A program made the translations under genes and the position numbers. A DNA stretch of 64,000 nt from IMG/VR virus record IMGVR_UViG_3300035701_000003; one strand, written 5' to 3'. Below are positions 17,531 through 43,986 of this stretch, piece after piece. This DNA is from a virus. Within the stretch, counting starts at the first letter, position 1; each line of letters opens with the position of its first letter. The notes below the pieces were generated by a model, which worked only from the letters and a program-made list of their open reading frames with translations, did not search any database and had not been told where the DNA came from.

Positions 17531-18301
17531 ATGACGAATAAGATTGCGTTATCGGTGGAACTACCCATAGACCTTTTACGACTATCAGATTTACTCGATC
17601 AAGATTTTGTAATAGCGAGTTATTGTTTAGAGTATCCTTATTATCATGCTTTTTATAAAGAGCGTAGGCAAGAAAAAGAAGTGTTTACTTATCTTGACAA
17701 TGGTGCTTTTGAATTAGGTAAAAGTATTGATAGTAAAGAATATGGGAAGTTAATAGATGATATTCGCCCGCATGTTGTAGTATTACCAGATGTTGTGAAT
17801 AACGCTAGGGATACTGTACATGAATCTCGTAAATTCTTGAAATCTTTTACAAAAGACGTTCCTTGTTATATGGGGGTATTACAAGGTACCAGTCTTTCAG
17901 ATTATCTATATTGTTTATACTTCTACTTAAAGATGGCCGAACATTATCCTATAAGAGTGATAGGAATACCTTATCATTTATTCTATCGACCGACTCTTTT
18001 ACGTAAATATGGAATAAATGACATATGTAAAGAACATGAAATACAAATACATATACTAGGCTTACCTAATCCTTTTGAAATAGTACCTCTTCATAATTTT
18101 TCACAAGTTACATCTGTCGATACTTCTCTTCCTATTTCAGCAGCTTGGCAAGGGATGGATCTAGCCGCCTATAGCTGGGTCGAGGGATTTAGAGTAGCAG
18201 TAGACGCTGTGGTAGATGGACCTTCTCAAGATTTATCCGAACATAACATAGGATTTCTTAAACATCTCTGCCATAATATCTTACAGGAGCATTTGATATG
18301 A
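17531..18301 (+). CDS. TGT-fold (tRNA-guanine transglycosylase/DpdA-like) protein, candidate DNA 7-deazaguanine insertase
   Basis: LDNGAFE, VLPDV, GVLQG, GIP, IHILG and SVDTS follow the TGT TIM-barrel motif order. It co-occurs with folE2/queD/queE/queC and overlaps the polA start. Confidence 0.7.
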   Translation: MTNKIALSVELPIDLLRLSDLLDQDFVIASYCLEYPYYHAFYKERRQEKEVFTYLDNGAFELGKSIDSKEYGKLIDDIRPHVVVLPDVVNNARDTVHESRKFLKSFTKDVPCYMGVLQGTSLSDYLYCLYFYLKMAEHYPIRVIGIPYHLFYRPTLLRKYGINDICKEHEIQIHILGLPNPFEIVPLHNFSQVTSVDTSLPISAAWQGMDLAAYSWVEGFRVAVDAVVDGPSQDLSEHNIGFLKHLCHNILQEHLI

Positions 18302-21300
18302 TTTTTGAAATGAAATACTATCCTTCATGTCATCCTGAAAATTGTAAAGAATGCCCTTTAGGGAAACAGGAGGGTATAAAAGTAGTACGCTCTATTTTAC
18401 CTTCTCACGCTAAAGTACTCTTTATAGGGGAAGGTCCTGGGGAAGTAGAGAATGAAAAAGGTATTCCTTTTGTAGGAAAAGCTGGCGAACTACTATCTCA
18501 AATTATGATAGAAGTGGGTATTAACAGGGATGACGTGGCTATTGCTAATACGGTGACTTGTAGACCTCCCGATAACAGAACTCCTACTACTAAAGAGATT
18601 AAAATCTGTTCTCAATTTTTACATTTAGAAATAGCCTCCTTAAAACCTTCTTTAATTGTTCCCTTGGGAGCAGTTGCTTTAAAAGTGATATATCCTTCCT
18701 TAGGTACTATAACTAAAGTAAGAGGAAAATTTGTAGACCATCCTGAATTGGGTTGTAAAATATTACCAGCTTTTCATCCATTTTATATTCTTAGGAATCC
18801 AACCGAAAGACATTTTCTAGTGGATGACTTAAAGAAAGTATCTGATTTTATGCATGGAAAAATTAGTATACCTGAGAAACAACCTACTTATTATCATACT
18901 ATAACTACTAGAAAACAATTAGATTGGGCTGTCGAACAATTACATAAAAATACTATATGGGCTTGTGATACTGAGACTACTTCTGTAAATCAATTAGAAG
19001 CGGAAGTGTTTATAATTACTTTCTCCTGGAAATCTCATAGCGCTATACTGATGGATTCTAGATTATTTAAAAACGATTTGGAATACTTTTGGGCTAAAGT
19101 AAAAGAAGTTATGGAGAATAATAGCTGCAAGATATTTCATAATGGGGGATATGATATTCAATGTTTTATAAACCATGGAATACAAGTTCAAAAATATCAC
19201 GCTGATACTATACTTATGTATTATATGCTCACTCAAACTATATTACCAGGTTTGGATAAGCTAACTTGGGATTTCTCCGATTTGGGGGGTTATGATTTAT
19301 TACTAGAAAGATATAAAAAAGAAAATACTATAAACTCTTATAAAGATATTCCGGTTGAAATAATACATCCTTACGCGTGTTCTGACGCTGATGTTACTCT
19401 CCGTTCTTATCTCGCTATGTTACCTCAGATTGAGAAACAACACCTTTCTTTTGTATTATTTGATATTATGATTCCGACTCAAAAAATATTACTTAGAGCC
19501 GAATATAACGGAGTATCTATCGATAAGAATTACTTGGATAAAACTATAGAAAAGTATACTAAGAAGATGCAAGACCAATTAACCGTAGTTAAGAATGTTC
19601 CTCAAGTAAGACAATTTGTAGAGGATAAACGAACTCAAGAAAAAGCTATATTAAAATCTAAATGGGAGAAATCTAAAACTTTAACTAAGAAGTATCCTGG
19701 TTTCGAAGATTATTTACAGGCACGCTTACTTAAGTCTCCGGATTCTTTAACTACCGAATTTAATATGAATTCCCCTAAACAGTTAAAAGAATTGCTTATA
19801 GATAAAATGGGATTAAAAATTATTAAGACTACAGCTACGGGACAGCCTTCAGTAGATGGGGAGGTATTAGAAGAGTATGCTAAACATAATTCGTTTTGTA
19901 ATGCTTTGCAGGAGTATCGAACTTTAAGTCATCTAAAGAGTACTTTTTTAGTTGGTATTCTAAATAGATTAACTTCTCAAAATAAGGTTCATACAGACTA
20001 CTTTTTATGCACCACCGACACTGGTAGAATCAGTTCTAGAGATCCCAACTTGGCTAATATTCCACGTACTGGTACTGCAGATGATATAAAAGATATTTTC
20101 TGTTCCGATCCTGGTGATTGGTTAATGGAAGCTGACTTAGCACAGGCGGAGTTCCGTTGTATAGAAGGTTCTCAAAAAGTATTAATGGAAGATTTTACTA
20201 CTAAGCCTATTAAAGAAATAAAAAAAGGAGATAGGGTATTAGCTATAGATGAATCTCCATTAAAAGGTTCCCCAAGGAGAAAATTTAAGGTAGCAGAAGT
20301 TTTAAAAACTCATTATCAAGGTAAAAAAGAATGCGTTAGAATTTCTTCTGAGGAGAATAGAATTATATGTACAAAGGATCATAAATTTTTGAAAAACTCT
20401 TCTAGAAACGAAAACTATGGGATAAACAGATGGGAAAGTCTTGAGACGAATGATTTATGTTATAATTTACCTATTTCTTATATAAAAAATAAAAAAGAGT
20501 ATCTTGAAGGCATGTTGTTTGGATTGTATCTAACAGATGGCCACTTAAAAAATGATACTGACTATCCTGTTTTAAGTATTTGTCAATCTGATAAGGAGAT
20601 AATTGATTGGGTTTTTACTTTTTTGAAGGATTACGGCTTTTCATGCAAGAGATTTTTTGATAAGCATGCTTATTATATTAGTTTAAGCAACAAGAAAGAA
20701 GTTACTAGGTTTCTAAAAATTTTCAGTAAAGAAAGATCTTTAGACTCCCAAAGAGGAATAGTGGCCGGAATGATATTAGGAGATGGTTGGATTGGAGGAG
20801 ATGGTTGGATTAGAGGCAATGATAAAACCTTTAAACAAACTGGTATTGGTATAGGTTTAAGTATTGTTCATCCCGAGGTTATGGAAATTTTATATAATTG
20901 TCTTAATTCTTTAAAAAATTGTTATTCTTTTACTTATAGAGTATATAATTTTCCTTATAAATCTGATAAAGAAAATAAACCCTTTTATCATTTTTATTTT
21001 TCTGCGATTTGTATGTTTTTATTTCCTCAGTTGATTCCGGGGAGAAAACAAAAAAGATTCTATGAAGTTTTACTTCGTTTTACCAGTTTACAGAATATTA
21101 ATAAAGTTAAAGTAAGGATAGAAAAATTACCTAAAGTTTATCCTACTTATGATTTAACTACTACTACCGGGACTTTTATTTGTGAAAACTTTTTAGTACA
21201 TAATTGTTGGATGGAATATTCTAGAGATCAGCAAGCCTTGGAGGATTTAAATAACGGATTAGACATTCATAAACTTATAGCTGCAGTAGCTTATCATGAT

Positions 21301-22002
21301 ATAAAGTTACCGAGAGATGCAATAAACAAGGAAACTTTTTTGGAATTAACTAAGGATGTAACTAAAGCCGAAAGACAAGATACTAAAACTATAGTGTTTG
21401 GAGTTATGTATGGAAGAGGTGCCCCCAGCGTAGCCGCCCAATTAGGAATAAGTACTTCTAAAGCCCGAAAGATTATAGATGTTTTCTTTAGTAGATACCC
21501 ACAAGCTTCTTTTTGGATTAAAACAACTATAGCTACTACCCGAAGAGACGGATATACTGTAAATTTATTTGGAAGAAGAAGAAGATTACCTGATATATTA
21601 TCCCCAATTCAGGGGGTGAGAGCTGCCGCTGAAAGACAAGCTATAAATGCACCCATCCAATCAGGGGCTTCGGATTTAACTTTCTTAGCTGGAGGCAGGA
21701 TATTCCGACACATATGGCAAAATAGAATGAAAACTCGGTTAGTATTAACCGTTTACGATTCTTTAGTATTTAATATTCCCGATAATGAATTAAAAACAAT
21801 AGTAGATTTAGTTAGTGTAGAGATGATTAAAAAACCTTTAGATTCGATAATGGTTCCCATTGGATGTGAAATAAAGGTAGGAACTCACTGGGGTACTCTT
21901 ATGGAGATAAATCCTAAGGAAGACTGGAATATCGTGTATAATAAACTTATAGAACATAAAAAATTAAAAGATGTTAAATTTACACAAAATAAAAGAGGTT
22001 AA
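18298..22002 (+). CDS. polA: Family A DNA polymerase with N-terminal family-4 uracil-DNA glycosylase, 3'-5' exonuclease domain and an intein
   Basis: UDG: C..CPL, GEGPG..E...G.PFVG.AG, CRPPDNRTP, HP. Exo: DTET, HNGGYD, YA.SDAD. Pol: TGRISS.DPNL.NIPR, motif A DLAQAEFR, motif B K...FGVMYG, AERQAINAPIQSGASD, motif C TVYDS. Confidence 0.95.
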   Translation: MIFEMKYYPSCHPENCKECPLGKQEGIKVVRSILPSHAKVLFIGEGPGEVENEKGIPFVGKAGELLSQIMIEVGINRDDVAIANTVTCRPPDNRTPTTKEIKICSQFLHLEIASLKPSLIVPLGAVALKVIYPSLGTITKVRGKFVDHPELGCKILPAFHPFYILRNPTERHFLVDDLKKVSDFMHGKISIPEKQPTYYHTITTRKQLDWAVEQLHKNTIWACDTETTSVNQLEAEVFIITFSWKSHSAILMDSRLFKNDLEYFWAKVKEVMENNSCKIFHNGGYDIQCFINHGIQVQKYHADTILMYYMLTQTILPGLDKLTWDFSDLGGYDLLLERYKKENTINSYKDIPVEIIHPYACSDADVTLRSYLAMLPQIEKQHLSFVLFDIMIPTQKILLRAEYNGVSIDKNYLDKTIEKYTKKMQDQLTVVKNVPQVRQFVEDKRTQEKAILKSKWEKSKTLTKKYPGFEDYLQARLLKSPDSLTTEFNMNSPKQLKELLIDKMGLKIIKTTATGQPSVDGEVLEEYAKHNSFCNALQEYRTLSHLKSTFLVGILNRLTSQNKVHTDYFLCTTDTGRISSRDPNLANIPRTGTADDIKDIFCSDPGDWLMEADLAQAEFRCIEGSQKVLMEDFTTKPIKEIKKGDRVLAIDESPLKGSPRRKFKVAEVLKTHYQGKKECVRISSEENRIICTKDHKFLKNSSRNENYGINRWESLETNDLCYNLPISYIKNKKEYLEGMLFGLYLTDGHLKNDTDYPVLSICQSDKEIIDWVFTFLKDYGFSCKRFFDKHAYYISLSNKKEVTRFLKIFSKERSLDSQRGIVAGMILGDGWIGGDGWIRGNDKTFKQTGIGIGLSIVHPEVMEILYNCLNSLKNCYSFTYRVYNFPYKSDKENKPFYHFYFSAICMFLFPQLIPGRKQKRFYEVLLRFTSLQNINKVKVRIEKLPKVYPTYDLTTTTGTFICENFLVHNCWMEYSRDQQALEDLNNGLDIHKLIAAVAYHDIKLPRDAINKETFLELTKDVTKAERQDTKTIVFGVMYGRGAPSVAAQLGISTSKARKIIDVFFSRYPQASFWIKTTIATTRRDGYTVNLFGRRRRLPDILSPIQGVRAAAERQAINAPIQSGASDLTFLAGGRIFRHIWQNRMKTRLVLTVYDSLVFNIPDNELKTIVDLVSVEMIKKPLDSIMVPIGCEIKVGTHWGTLMEINPKEDWNIVYNKLIEHKKLKDVKFTQNKRG
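20158..21204 (+). mobile_element. Intein (349 aa) with LAGLIDADG homing endonuclease, inserted directly after PolA motif A
   Basis: Starts CIEGSQKV, block B ICTKDHKF, LAGLIDADG-like GLYLTDG and GMILGDG, block F TYDLTT..GTF, ends FLVHN with +1 Cys. Confidence 0.93.
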
Positions 22003-40309: not shown

Positions 40310-40855
40310 GTGAAAATCCAGACTGAAATTAGAAATAAGATTAAAGAACTTACTAAAGAAAGAAAAGCCCTACTGTATAATGAGGAACTCGGTAAGGTAC
40401 AAAAAGAATATCGGGATAAACTAGACGCTTATTATAAAAAGATACGCCCCGAGAAAGATAAGATTGATGAAGAGATTGAGACTCTACGGAAAGAACTAAG
40501 TAAACGTAAAGATGATAGACTTCCTATTATAAGTAAGCGTTTGGAGGACTGGTTGCAAGGGTATACTCGCGGCGCTACCTTCGGGCCTCAAGGACTAAAG
40601 ATAAAAGAAATCTTAGATGATAAGGAAAGATTTGTGCTAGTGTATAATCCCGGTCATACCTATTGGGCAAGGAGAGGAGAATTTCATTATGGTAGTAGTA
40701 GTTATTGGATAACTGATACTTTTATACAAAAACAGTGGCTTGGTAATACTACTAAGATAATGGGTACTGAAGTAGAAGGAAGATTAACTAAAGAAGTAAA
40801 GAAAAAACTATTAGAAGTGTTAGAGGAATACAAAAAAGTAAATAAAATAACGTAA
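40310..40855 (+). CDS. Hypothetical protein with an N-terminal coiled coil
   Basis: 181-aa ORF with a GTG start after AAGGA. Confidence 0.7.
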   Translation: MKIQTEIRNKIKELTKERKALLYNEELGKVQKEYRDKLDAYYKKIRPEKDKIDEEIETLRKELSKRKDDRLPIISKRLEDWLQGYTRGATFGPQGLKIKEILDDKERFVLVYNPGHTYWARRGEFHYGSSSYWITDTFIQKQWLGNTTKIMGTEVEGRLTKEVKKKLLEVLEEYKKVNKIT

Positions 40856-40899
40856 AGTAATAGGGCGTGTGTAATAAATGAAAATAGAACGGGGTATAT

Positions 40900-41595
40900 A
40901 TGGCTACTAAAACAGAAAAAGAAAAAGCATTAGAAGCTACTATAGCAAGTCTGGAGAAGCAATTTGGTAAGGGCACTATAATGCAAATGGGTAAAACTCC
41001 TATAGAAAAAATAGGAGCTATTCCTACTGGTTGCATGTCCATAGATGAAATTACTGGTATAGGTGGAATTCCCAGAGGAAGAGTAACTGAGGTATTTGGG
41101 CCGGAGATGTCTGGTAAAACTACAATGTGCCTTCATATAATAGCACAAGCTCAGAAATTAGGGGGTATGGCTGCTTTTATTGACGTAGAACACGCTCTTG
41201 ATTTAAATTACGCTTCTAATATCGGGGTTAATGTAACTAGTTTATTGATATCTCAACCAGACTATGGAGAACAAGCTCTTGAAGTAGCAGACGCTTTGAT
41301 AAGAAGTAACTCTGTAGATATTGTTGTAGTAGACTCCGTAGCAGCTTTAGTCCCAAAAAGTGAATTAGAGGGAGAAATGGGAGACTCCACCATAGCCCTT
41401 CAAGCACGTTTAATGTCTAAAGCTTTACGGAAACTTACGTCTAATGTTAATAAATCTAATACAGCTTTAATATTTATAAATCAACTTAGAAGTAAAATTG
41501 GGATTATGTTTGGTAATCCCGAATGTGTTGATCCTTATACTACGGAGGTTGAATTGGAAGTTCCCGAAGATATTTATAAAATATTTTTTGAGTAA
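40900..41595 (+). CDS. recA: RecA N-terminal part (208 aa) fused to a 23-aa N-intein fragment
   Basis: IEKQFGKG-like start, [62 protein letters not shown], then CVDPYTTEV and a stop. Confidence 0.95.
41524..41592 (+). mobile_element. Split intein N-fragment ([23 protein letters not shown])
   Basis: Begins with Cys exactly at the GNPE|TT junction of RecA; resembles intein block A. Confidence 0.88.
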
Positions 41596-41599
41596 ACCC

Positions 41600-41628
41600 T
41601 TGAATTTTTTCCTCCTATACTTATATAT
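41600..41628 (+). promoter_or_regulatory. Putative promoter TTGAAT-16/17-TATATA for the endonuclease and C-intein genes
   Basis: Lies in the 58-bp gap after the recA-N stop, followed by a GGGAG RBS. Confidence 0.5.
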
Positions 41629-41653
41629 CATAAGTAACAACGGGAGAAAAAAA

Positions 41654-42619
41654 ATGGATTTATTATTAAAATATTTTAATATTGTTATAACGAAGAATTT
41701 TTTGGTAAAACTTAAGTTTAAGAATGAATTTAAAGTTAAACATATGAAAAATATTAGGAAAATTATTCCGAAAGTAAATGGGCCTTCATTGGAATATTAT
41801 CAATATCATTTGGGGGGAGACACCGGAAGACAGATTTTTAATGAAAGAAAGAAATATTTCGGGTATCAAAAATTAGCAGAACTTGTAATAGCGAATAAAC
41901 TTTATGATAATGACGTACAATTAGCTGGAATACAAAAGAAAGTTTTACAAAATAATCAAAATATTAAAAAAGGTGTTATAGAATCTCAGCCTAAAACTTG
42001 GCATAATCCAGATTATGTATCCTCTTTGTTGAAAAAAAGAGCAATATCTATGAGTAAATTAGATTTTTCCTTAAATAAAAGTAAAAAAGCAAAAGAGTAC
42101 TGGGCTAGCGATAGGGCTATAGCCCACCGAGAAAAGATTTCAAAAAATCACAAAGAGGGTAAAAGTTTCTCTTTAGTCAAATGGCAAATAGAAAATGGAG
42201 TAAAACATAGTTCTTCTTTATTTCTAAGAAAAGGAAAAAATTTAAATTATTTAGAATATTTGTTTAGTTTGATGTTAGATGACTTTAGTATATTTTATGA
42301 AATAGAACAAAATATTAAAATTGATAATATTAATTATTTTCCAGATTTTTTTATACCGAGATTGCGTTTAATAATTGAATTATTTGGTGATGTTTGGCAT
42401 TGTAATCCTTCTTTAGTTAAAGTTTTTGAAAATAGTAAAGATATCTCTCCTTTTAAAAAAGATCCTAAAATAGTATGGCAAAAGGATAAAGAAAGACAAG
42501 ATACTTTTTTAAAAGCCGGTTATCGTTACTTGGTTTTTTGGGAAAACGAGTTTTCTTTTGGCCGATTAGAAAGAATTTATAAATTTTTAATAAAAATAGA
42601 AAAGGAATTACATGGATAA
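41654..42619 (+). CDS. Free-standing Vsr/DUF559-like homing endonuclease between the recA halves
   Basis: Basic N-terminal repeats; N.LE..F...L, YFPDF, IIELFGD.WH, D.ERQ..F...GY..LVFWE. The ATG at 41654 has an RBS. Confidence 0.8.
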   Translation: MDLLLKYFNIVITKNFLVKLKFKNEFKVKHMKNIRKIIPKVNGPSLEYYQYHLGGDTGRQIFNERKKYFGYQKLAELVIANKLYDNDVQLAGIQKKVLQNNQNIKKGVIESQPKTWHNPDYVSSLLKKRAISMSKLDFSLNKSKKAKEYWASDRAIAHREKISKNHKEGKSFSLVKWQIENGVKHSSSLFLRKGKNLNYLEYLFSLMLDDFSIFYEIEQNIKIDNINYFPDFFIPRLRLIIELFGDVWHCNPSLVKVFENSKDISPFKKDPKIVWQKDKERQDTFLKAGYRYLVFWENEFSFGRLERIYKFLIKIEKELHG

Positions 42620-43010
42620 GAAGTATATAAAAGTTAAAATTACTTTAGGAACTTTATTTAAAAAATTAGGCGTGAAAGATTTTAAAACTCCTTCTGTTTT
42701 ACCAGTTGATACTTTAGGAATTAGAATAAAATCTTTTGATACTGCATTATCTCAGGATGTTTTTTCTTTAATAAAAGATTTAGTAGTAAAAGCTCCAGTA
42801 CCTTATCATTTTATTCTAAAGTCTCTGAATGGACAAGAATTAAAAACATCTAGTCATCATAAGTCTTATAAAGATAAAGAATGGGTTGAATCATTTAAAA
42901 GATTTGAGTTAGAAGAAGATCATCTTAAAGTCGAAAAACCTTTAGATATTGTAGATTTGACAGTGAAAAATACTGAATGTTATTATGCTAATGGTCAATT
43001 AAACCACAAT
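42612..43010 (+). mobile_element. Split intein C-fragment
   Basis: Carries the TxxH, block F and terminal HN motifs with +1 Thr. Confidence 0.9.
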
Positions 43011-43421
43011 ACTACACCTGGCGGTAATGCTCTTAAATTTTATGCTTCTATGAGAATTGATATAAGGAAGAAAACGGCTATTAAACAAGGAGATCGTACT
43101 GTTGGTAATATAACTAAGGTAAAAATTGTAAAAAGTAAAGTATCTCCTCCTTTTAGAGAAACTGAGGTTAGTATTATTAGTCCTTATGGAATAGATATAA
43201 TAGGGGATATATTAGACAAGGCGGTAGATTTTAAAGTTATAAAGCAAGGCGGGGCCTGGTTTACTTACAAAGAAGATAGATGGCAAGGTAGGGATTCCGT
43301 AACGGACACTTTAAAGAAGGATCCTATATTTTTAGATCAGGTAAAATCCGAAGTATTAGTAGCCATGAAAGAAAATAAGGAAGTTGTTAAAGAAAAAGAA
43401 GTTTTACCACAATTAGTATAA
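42612..43421 (+). CDS. recA: 133-aa C-intein fragment fused to the RecA C-terminal part (136 aa)
   Basis: Block B LKTSSHHK, block F IVDLTV.NTECYYANG, block G LNHN, then TTPGGNALKFYASMRIDIR, KVKIVK.KVSPPF and GAWF. Confidence 0.95.
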   Translation: MDKKYIKVKITLGTLFKKLGVKDFKTPSVLPVDTLGIRIKSFDTALSQDVFSLIKDLVVKAPVPYHFILKSLNGQELKTSSHHKSYKDKEWVESFKRFELEEDHLKVEKPLDIVDLTVKNTECYYANGQLNHNTTPGGNALKFYASMRIDIRKKTAIKQGDRTVGNITKVKIVKSKVSPPFRETEVSIISPYGIDIIGDILDKAVDFKVIKQGGAWFTYKEDRWQGRDSVTDTLKKDPIFLDQVKSEVLVAMKENKEVVKEKEVLPQLV

Positions 43422-43422
43422 C

Positions 43423-43986
43423 ATGAAAATACTTTATAATCCAAATTTACAAGAAGTTTACGAAGGCTATACACAAGCTGTAGAAGACTTATCTTATAAC
43501 ATTTATACTCATTACTTTGTTTTCGAAGATGTAGTTAAGGAAATAGAAGATATGAGGGTTAAGTTACTAAGAGCTCCCGAAGACGATATGGCTAGTTTTA
43601 ATACTCTTTACGCAGAAGCCCAAAGTTATCATAGTAGAGCCTGTGGAGTATTGATATCCTTTATAGACGAAAGAAGATTTTGGAGAAGATTAGAAATTAT
43701 AGGCGATAAACTCTATGCAAGGTCCCGGAACTTTTTATTAGGTACTCCTGAAATACAGGACCTTCGCAACCAAGCTCTACAGAACGCTAAAGTGGACTCT
43801 AAACTTCAATTACTTTTATCTTTGATTAGTGTTATAACGGGGGCTTTATCTGATATGAAAGATTTAATAGAAATTGTACAAGTGAAAATTGATGAATTAA
43901 ATAATATAATAACTAATATGAGCCGTCAACAGAGAGTAACAGAATCTCTTATAGGTTTAGGTTATCCCGTTAGAGGCCGTAAATAG
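43423..43986 (+). CDS. Helical/coiled protein next to recA, possible UvsY-like mediator
   Basis: The function is inferred from position and helical character only. Confidence 0.3.
   Translation: MKILYNPNLQEVYEGYTQAVEDLSYNIYTHYFVFEDVVKEIEDMRVKLLRAPEDDMASFNTLYAEAQSYHSRACGVLISFIDERRFWRRLEIIGDKLYARSRNFLLGTPEIQDLRNQALQNAKVDSKLQLLLSLISVITGALSDMKDLIEIVQVKIDELNNIITNMSRQQRVTESLIGLGYPVRGRK

Follow-up and report, generated by a model that had tools for sequence, protein, structure and literature searches.

A predicted split intein and an intervening Vsr-like endonuclease gene in the fractured recA of a large tailed phage

Naturally split inteins with a short N-terminal fragment (IntN) have published IntN lengths of 15-37 amino acids (aa) (PMC13014065, PMC10189870). 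The S1 type is broken after strand β2 (VidaL, IntN of 16 aa; PolB16 OarG, 15 aa) (PMC13014065, PMC10189870) and the S2 type after helix α1 (AceL-TerL, 25 aa; GOS-TerL, 37 aa) (PMC13014065). There is demand for such inteins in protein semisynthesis, and few natural ones have been characterised so far. A second line of work concerns the fractured genes of environmental phages described by Dassa et al. in 2009, where Vsr-like endonucleases are present in half of the loci (PMC2677866). Here we analyse the recA locus of a 64,000-nucleotide (nt) stretch of viral DNA from record IMGVR_UViG_3300035701_000003, called the window below, to which all locus coordinates refer. Its recA is broken in two, each half carrying part of a putative intein, with an endonuclease-like gene in between and all three open reading frames (ORFs) on the + strand. 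At a probability of roughly 80%, drawn from sequence and structural models, the phage RecA would be made by trans-splicing of two precursors through this split intein.

The fractured recA and its intein fragments

The ORF at 40900-41595 encodes 231 aa that follow RecA down to ...IMFGNPE, continue with 23 residues from a Cys codon at 41524 and end at a TAA. The ORF at 42612-43421 encodes 269 aa, the first ~130 of which have no Pfam family match and contain LKTSSHH (intein block B), DIVDLTV (block F) and NGQLNHN (block G); the remainder matches RecA again, together with RecA_C (Table 1). The end of the intein C-fragment (IntC), ...DIVDLTVKNTECYYANGQLNHN, abuts TTPGGNALKF directly, and once 23 + 133 residues are removed the RecA halves join seamlessly into 208 + 136 = 344 aa. 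The junction GNPE-TTPGG lies in L2, the DNA-binding loop of RecA. A preliminary description of this DNA had proposed a fractured recA with a split intein and a 23-residue IntN inserted in the L2 loop, together with a joined product of 344 aa, seven Asp/Glu and one Lys in IntN, and six Lys within IntC residues 1-20. Re-derivation of the ORFs and the Pfam RecA matches across both halves bear out its coordinates, motifs and counts. It had also equated the site with the RecA-b intein site; the RecA-b intein of Mycobacterium leprae lies in the same L2 loop, and the allele assignment is provisional.

The intein was recognised through family profiles and, for IntC, also through predicted structure. 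A phmmer search of 1.84 billion representatives returned 51 IntC relatives (E down to 3e-19). Alignment and domain scanning of 50 of them showed a RecA domain in 42 and a match to Pfam Intein_splicing (best E 3e-15) in 20. The long relatives are recombinases with a contiguous intein at the identical two junctions, GNPE/CVDPYTT...NHN/TT (slashes mark the junctions), as in P0034, which reads GNPE/CVDPYTTKIKIK...NHN/TTSGG. Since contiguous relatives share these junctions, the 23-residue IntN of the window is homologous to their first strands. Eight positions are invariant in the alignment of 51 family inteins (K60, H83, D115, Y124, A126, N131, H132, N133), and the window keeps them all. Its class 1 intein residues are Cys1 (GNPE/C), S80-x-x-H83, D115 and H132-N133/T134. 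The single-chain AlphaFold2 model of IntC has a mean pLDDT of 91.7 and a pTM of 0.81. When this model was compared with the PDB by Foldseek, only inteins and HINT domains were among the matches listed (19 at E <= 1e-3), including the Pyrococcus (Pho) RadA intein, the TFIIB mini-intein, the atypically split Cat intein and the Mtu RecA intein. As judged from homology and predicted fold, the element is thus a naturally split class 1 intein in the L2 loop of a fractured recA.

The gene between the halves starts at an ATG (41654) behind GGGAG, 58 nt past the first stop, and its TAA overlaps the ATG of the recA-C gene (ATGGATAA), which has a Shine-Dalgarno (SD)-like AAGGA 5 nt upstream. Three sources (JGI/IMG, Logan, ENA) contain exact copies of all three proteins, on 4-6 contigs, and the same three-gene layout was found again in the related loci L081 and L067 and in about 50 viral loci, so that stop and gap are not a one-off assembly error.

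Table 1. Features of the fractured recA locus (window coordinates)
Feature	Position	Strand	Description
recA N-extein	40900..41523	+	RecA residues 1-208, ending in L2 loop; Pfam RecA E 8e-97, profile positions 1-201 of 262
Intein N-fragment (IntN)	41524..41595	+	23 codons and TAA; Cys1, β1, acidic β2 (TEVELEV), 10-residue tail; aligns with first residues of contiguous inteins
Spacer	41596..41653	+	58 nt before endonuclease gene; conserved AT-rich element and ribosome-binding site GGGAG; conserved between window and L081
Vsr-like free-standing homing endonuclease gene (predicted)	41654..42619	+	321 aa; nuclease core in C-terminal third: PDF, ELFGDVWHCNP, D278, WE
Intein C-fragment (IntC)	42612..43010	+	133 aa; basic β3 (YIKVKIT), α1, block B (S80..H83), block F (D115), block G (H132 N133)
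recA C-extein	43011..43421	+	RecA residues 209-344 from Thr+1 (TTPGGNALKF) and stop codon; Pfam RecA positions 198-261, RecA_C

Split position, nuclease gene and intein family

The contiguous relative L079 (134 aa, RecA context GNPE/C) provides the reference for the split position. Its model (pLDDT 97.8) has β2 at residues 8-13, a two-residue turn, β3 at 16-21 and helix α1 at 22-30. The window IntN runs from Cys1 through the equivalent of β2 (TEVELEV) and extends ten residues beyond it, and IntC opens with MDKK, followed by β3 (YIKVKIT) and α1 (LGTLFKKL; model helix 12-18). Since IntN ends after the β2 equivalent and its tail and IntC starts at β3, the break falls in the β2/β3 hairpin turn. 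By alignment and by the L079 and IntC models the split is of the S1 type of VidaL and PolB16, with α1 in IntC, and not of the S2 type of AceL-TerL to which the preliminary description had assigned it; IntN reaches 23 aa through its ten-residue tail.

The window nuclease was likewise identified through its family. Gap ORFs in 29 related split loci are its homologues (best E 2e-47), and the window copy carries all the motifs that are invariant among them: N..E, PDF, E-x-x-G-D-x-W-H-x-N-P, a later Asp and WE, with D231, E242, W248-H249 and D278 as invariant residues. Against the PDB, the family profile found E. coli Vsr (1VSR, 1CW0; E 7e-5), the match spanning exactly these motifs, and among 23 nuclease members Pfam finds DUF559 in 13 and Vsr in 6. 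The window nuclease alone gave nothing against Pfam and the PDB beyond a weak sub-threshold DUF559 match (E 0.034). The profile match supports the earlier proposal of a Vsr-like gene between the halves, and by homology the middle gene is a Vsr-like homing endonuclease, its product presumably an active nuclease. The spacer ahead of it follows a pattern common to window 41596-41653 and L081:565-619, CTATA.TTATATAT.ATA..TAACAA..GGAG; this may be a control element travelling with the nuclease gene, as described by Dassa et al. (PMC2677866). Other arrangements exist. The endonuclease ORF of L024/L025:2987-4885, P0013, P0019, P0028 and P0039 is in frame with IntC without a stop, giving a nuclease-IntC-RecA-C fusion, and five loci (L027, L028, L031, L049, L057) have a second, unrelated family of gap ORFs (265-289 aa) at the same split site.

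A scan of IMG/VR for the pattern of the family alignment gave at least 111 relatives, of which 80 retained loci were classified. Fifty of these, or 36 distinct pairs, are split at the β2/β3 turn. Another 19 have a contiguous intein of 132-165 aa, and 11 could be assigned to neither state, most of them lying on contigs that stop short of the N part. IntN lengths in the family run from 14 to 28 aa with a mode of 15, placing the 23 aa of the window at the long end. The shortest IntN has 14 residues (CVTPDTKIKIRRRK, CVTPDTRIRIRKYV; loci L031:764-805, L034, L051), one below the shortest characterised natural IntN reported (15 aa, PolB16). The view of the window IntN as a singular new ligation tool therefore has to be given up: at least 111 IMG/VR loci make up its family, with IntN mostly of 15 aa and down to 14, next to published fragments of 15-37 aa. 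The RecA L2 family offers dozens of natural variants.

The gap between N and C parts measures 536-1174 nt in 30 distinct split pairs and 100-392 nt in the other six, which indicates that the split state persists without a full endonuclease gene. No relatives with both ORFs in one frame across a short gap were found. A tree of the intein region from β3 on requires at least 14 changes between split and contiguous states, at least five of them forced by well-supported branches, implying that the same loop was fractured, or healed, again and again. In the pairs L063/L073 and L046/L058, nearly identical inteins (branch lengths 0 to 0.05) are one split and one contiguous; such pairs are natural before-and-after cases of gene fracture by a homing endonuclease. 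With 50 of 80 viral loci split here, six distinct pairs lacking a nuclease-sized gap, and rough ratios of nonsynonymous to synonymous divergence (dN/dS) of 0.05 for IntN and 0.25 for IntC, the split is, from these comparative data, a stable and functional state.

The scan of IMG/VR for close relatives with a single IntC sequence found none, whereas the alignment-based one succeeded. Among one genome per species from 185,579 species only two family matches appeared, both on contigs of metagenome-assembled genomes, and 50,697 GenBank phage records contained no intein relative when queried with the window IntC and with a typical contiguous member. By this distribution the intein family is essentially viral and uncultured. 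No description of split inteins in the RecA L2 loop was found in the searchable literature, which is incomplete.

Recombinases of this kind have further intein arrangements. Two inteins stand seven residues apart in the L2 region of L008:1055-4089, L022:1743-4879, P0009, P0010, P0014 and P0044, reading ...LG/CVNPETT..., then ...SHN/TSFGDPY/CVDPYTT...NHN/TT; of the two, L008 and L022 have the downstream one contiguous and the upstream one atypically split, its halves separated by a nuclease-sized gap. A third intein site is the Walker A loop of recombinases (GESG/C...HN/TGKS), occupied in P0043 (residues 40-195) and P0044 (residues 1-125), the latter opening with the IntC of this Walker A loop intein.

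Fragment pairing and production of RecA

The nearest relative, L081, is 62% identical to the window in IntC and has a 23-residue IntN, then a homologous nuclease gene, then an IntC starting MSTTYVKTKL. The IntN counterpart of L067 is CVDPFTTEVELKIPKDIYQKFFQE, and the tail is common to window, L081 and L067. It is kept as the peptide pattern P-E/K-D-I-Y-x-x-F/Y-F and not as DNA, the codon differences between the window and L081 IntN being mostly at third positions. Nei-Gojobori estimates for window versus L081 give dN/dS values, rough ones, of 0.05 for IntN, 0.12 for the N-extein, 0.17 for the nuclease, 0.25 for IntC and 0.24 for the C-extein. Within the limits of these rough ratios, the IntN tail is under strong purifying selection in the subclade of the window. 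A hidden nuclease promoter as the reason for its conservation is not supported: the -10-like TATAAAAT of the window is lost in L081, where the peptide pattern is kept. Our guess is that the ten residues form an extra docking element.

The charges of the strands flanking the break are compensated. In 26 of 28 distinct split pairs β2 carries +2 to +5 and β3 -1 to -3. The window (β2 -3, β3 +2) and L064 (-2, +1) are reversed on both strands, and none of the 28 pairs is like-charged. L081 retains the reversed pattern, with an acidic β2 and a basic β3. Compensated charges are what an electrostatic zipper between the fragments predicts, and their compensated reversal in the subclade of the window supports electrostatic pairing; the charges also suggest that the window pair would not cross-react with typical members of the family. 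That the subclade (window, L081 and probably L067) is a naturally charge-reversed version of a widespread S1-split intein, possibly docking through its tail and orthogonal to its own family, we put forward tentatively, as an idea with the odds against it. If true, the charge-reversed pair would be a natural example of split inteins avoiding cross-talk and a ready-made orthogonal short-fragment pair.

The history and working of the locus are probably as follows. A mini-intein of ~135-150 aa would have resided in the L2 DNA-binding loop of RecA, between Glu208 and Thr209, until the coding sequence of the β2/β3 hairpin turn was invaded by a Vsr-like homing endonuclease gene, which broke recA into two parts. 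Co-transcription of the three genes is likely, as is translational coupling of the recA-C gene to that of the nuclease. No terminator-like sites were found on the + strand in the locus, and promoter-like matches there are no more frequent than in shuffled sequence. Two products would result, RecA(1-208)-IntN(23) and IntC(133)-RecA(209-344), and they would meet through the oppositely charged β2 (TEVELEV) and β3 (YIKVKIT), completing the HINT fold. Class 1 intein chemistry is established, and the pair would follow it: an N-S acyl shift at Cys1 forming a thioester, transfer of the N-extein to Thr+1, cyclisation of Asn133 and an O-N shift. The outcome would be an intact RecA of 344 aa and the excised intein pieces. 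As L2 is the DNA-binding loop, neither RecA half nor the unspliced complex is expected to be fully active, and the phage would rely on trans-splicing to make a core recombinase.

With all splicing residues present, trans-splicing is the interpretation we favour. Several points weigh against it. IntC alone had no Pfam or PDB match in direct sequence searches, and the identity of the intein stands on transitive homology and a predicted fold. Association and splicing of the two fragments are predicted, and the structural model is that of a single chain. Thr attacks less readily than Cys or Ser, and at +1 it may make splicing slow or condition-dependent. Synonymous divergence is saturated in the comparison with L081, which makes the dN/dS values rough, and an intact second recA may lie beyond the visible 64 kb.

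The poor nucleophile is also what gives some room to a non-covalent clasp, in which the intein fragments do no more than keep the RecA halves in contact, or in which splicing is so inefficient that the complex does the work; the conserved IntN tail could then serve binding and not catalysis. We regard this as improbable. The catalytic positions, namely Cys1, the block B His, the block F Asp and His-Asn followed by Thr, are intact and invariant in the family, and the break lies inside the L2 loop, where, going by the structure-function relations of RecA, a domain as bulky as HINT would probably interfere with activity. It is harder still to see in the locus a decaying gene, inactivated by insertion of the endonuclease and with its pieces heading for loss. 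Homing endonuclease invasions can be deleterious, and direct evidence of RecA production is absent from the window. However, both halves, IntN and the nuclease gene are intact ORFs with start signals, dN/dS stays at 0.05-0.25 against a relative whose synonymous divergence is saturated, and the same split occurs in 36 distinct viral pairs, some without a nuclease, making decay very improbable. Least probable of all is a contiguous intein-RecA precursor produced by a ~1 kb self-splicing intron, or hidden by an assembly error in the stop or gap: Rfam has no match at E up to 1 in 40500-43800, hence a group I intron is not recognisable, the stop codon of the nuclease gene overlaps the recA-C ATG, the tail of IntN is conserved as coding sequence, IntC starts at its own Met behind an SD-like AAGGA, spacers in split relatives go down to 100 nt, too short for a group I intron, and the exact proteins recur across sources.

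The window encodes a ribonucleotide reductase (RNR), a helicase, PolA, a tail sheath protein and exonucleases, with nearly all ORFs of at least 150 aa on one strand, and is part of a large tailed phage. At 18298-22002 it has a family-A DNA polymerase of 1234 aa (UDG, 3'-5' exonuclease and PolA parts) with a contiguous intein at about residues 616-969. Pfam Intein_splicing matches the latter with E 1e-8 and 35.4 bits, just below the 35.8 cut-off, and the Hint and LAGLIDADG_3 matches are weaker and below the curated cut-offs. From these matches one phage appears to have both kinds of intein, a classical one in PolA and a split one in recA.

Comparison with described systems

The layout of the locus is that of the fractured genes of Dassa et al.: the same order on one strand of N-extein with IntN, short spacer, free-standing endonuclease gene, and IntC with C-extein, likewise in a phage setting and in host genes of DNA metabolism (PMC2677866). 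The spacer has 58 nt in the window and 27-51 nt there, and the window split lies near the N-terminus of the intein, unlike in those genes (PMC2677866). In the passages of that paper searched for it, recA figures only with group I introns carrying Vsr-like genes, not as a fractured gene (PMC2677866). With the Vsr-like homing endonucleases of the I-Bth0305I type the window protein shares the core aligned to E. coli Vsr (PDF, G-D-x-W-H, later Asp, WE), as well as the Glu seven residues before the catalytic His noted by Dassa et al. for the homing family (PMC2677866). The PDB sequence matches of the nuclease-family profile are to Vsr itself, none of them of the homing type, and the N-terminal two thirds of the window protein has no assigned fold.

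The split position is shared with VidaL and PolB16, which likewise have α1 in IntC and an IntN short enough for peptide synthesis. Their IntN have 16 and 15 aa, compared with 23 aa in the window through its ten-residue tail, and splicing in the window is predicted. VidaL has Cys1 as the window has, PolB16 Ser1/Ser+1 (PMC13014065, PMC10189870), and the window Cys1/Thr+1; the Ser at +1 in one published VidaL construct is that construct's own T214S change. The VidaL sequence was taken from a preprint supplement, where optical character recognition errors are possible. VidaL-C (76 residues) has no significant similarity to the family profile (hhalign probability 0.7%), and no VidaL link was found through PDB or phmmer searches. 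With P0044 it gives a colinear but weak BLASTP match (E 0.079), and the VidaL constructs use an ESG N-extein, which would resemble the P-loop context of P0043 and not L2. From this N-extein and the P-loop inteins of P0043 and P0044, VidaL probably sits in the P-loop.

AceL-TerL has an IntN of 25 aa, close to the 23 aa of the window, and is also Cys-dependent and of phage-metagenome origin. AceL-TerL and GOS-TerL differ from the window in split position and host gene, α1 being part of IntC in the window. Both the layout, from Dassa et al., and the split position, from VidaL and PolB16, are thus already known, and the window adds to them a reversal of the strand charges and a conserved tail on IntN.

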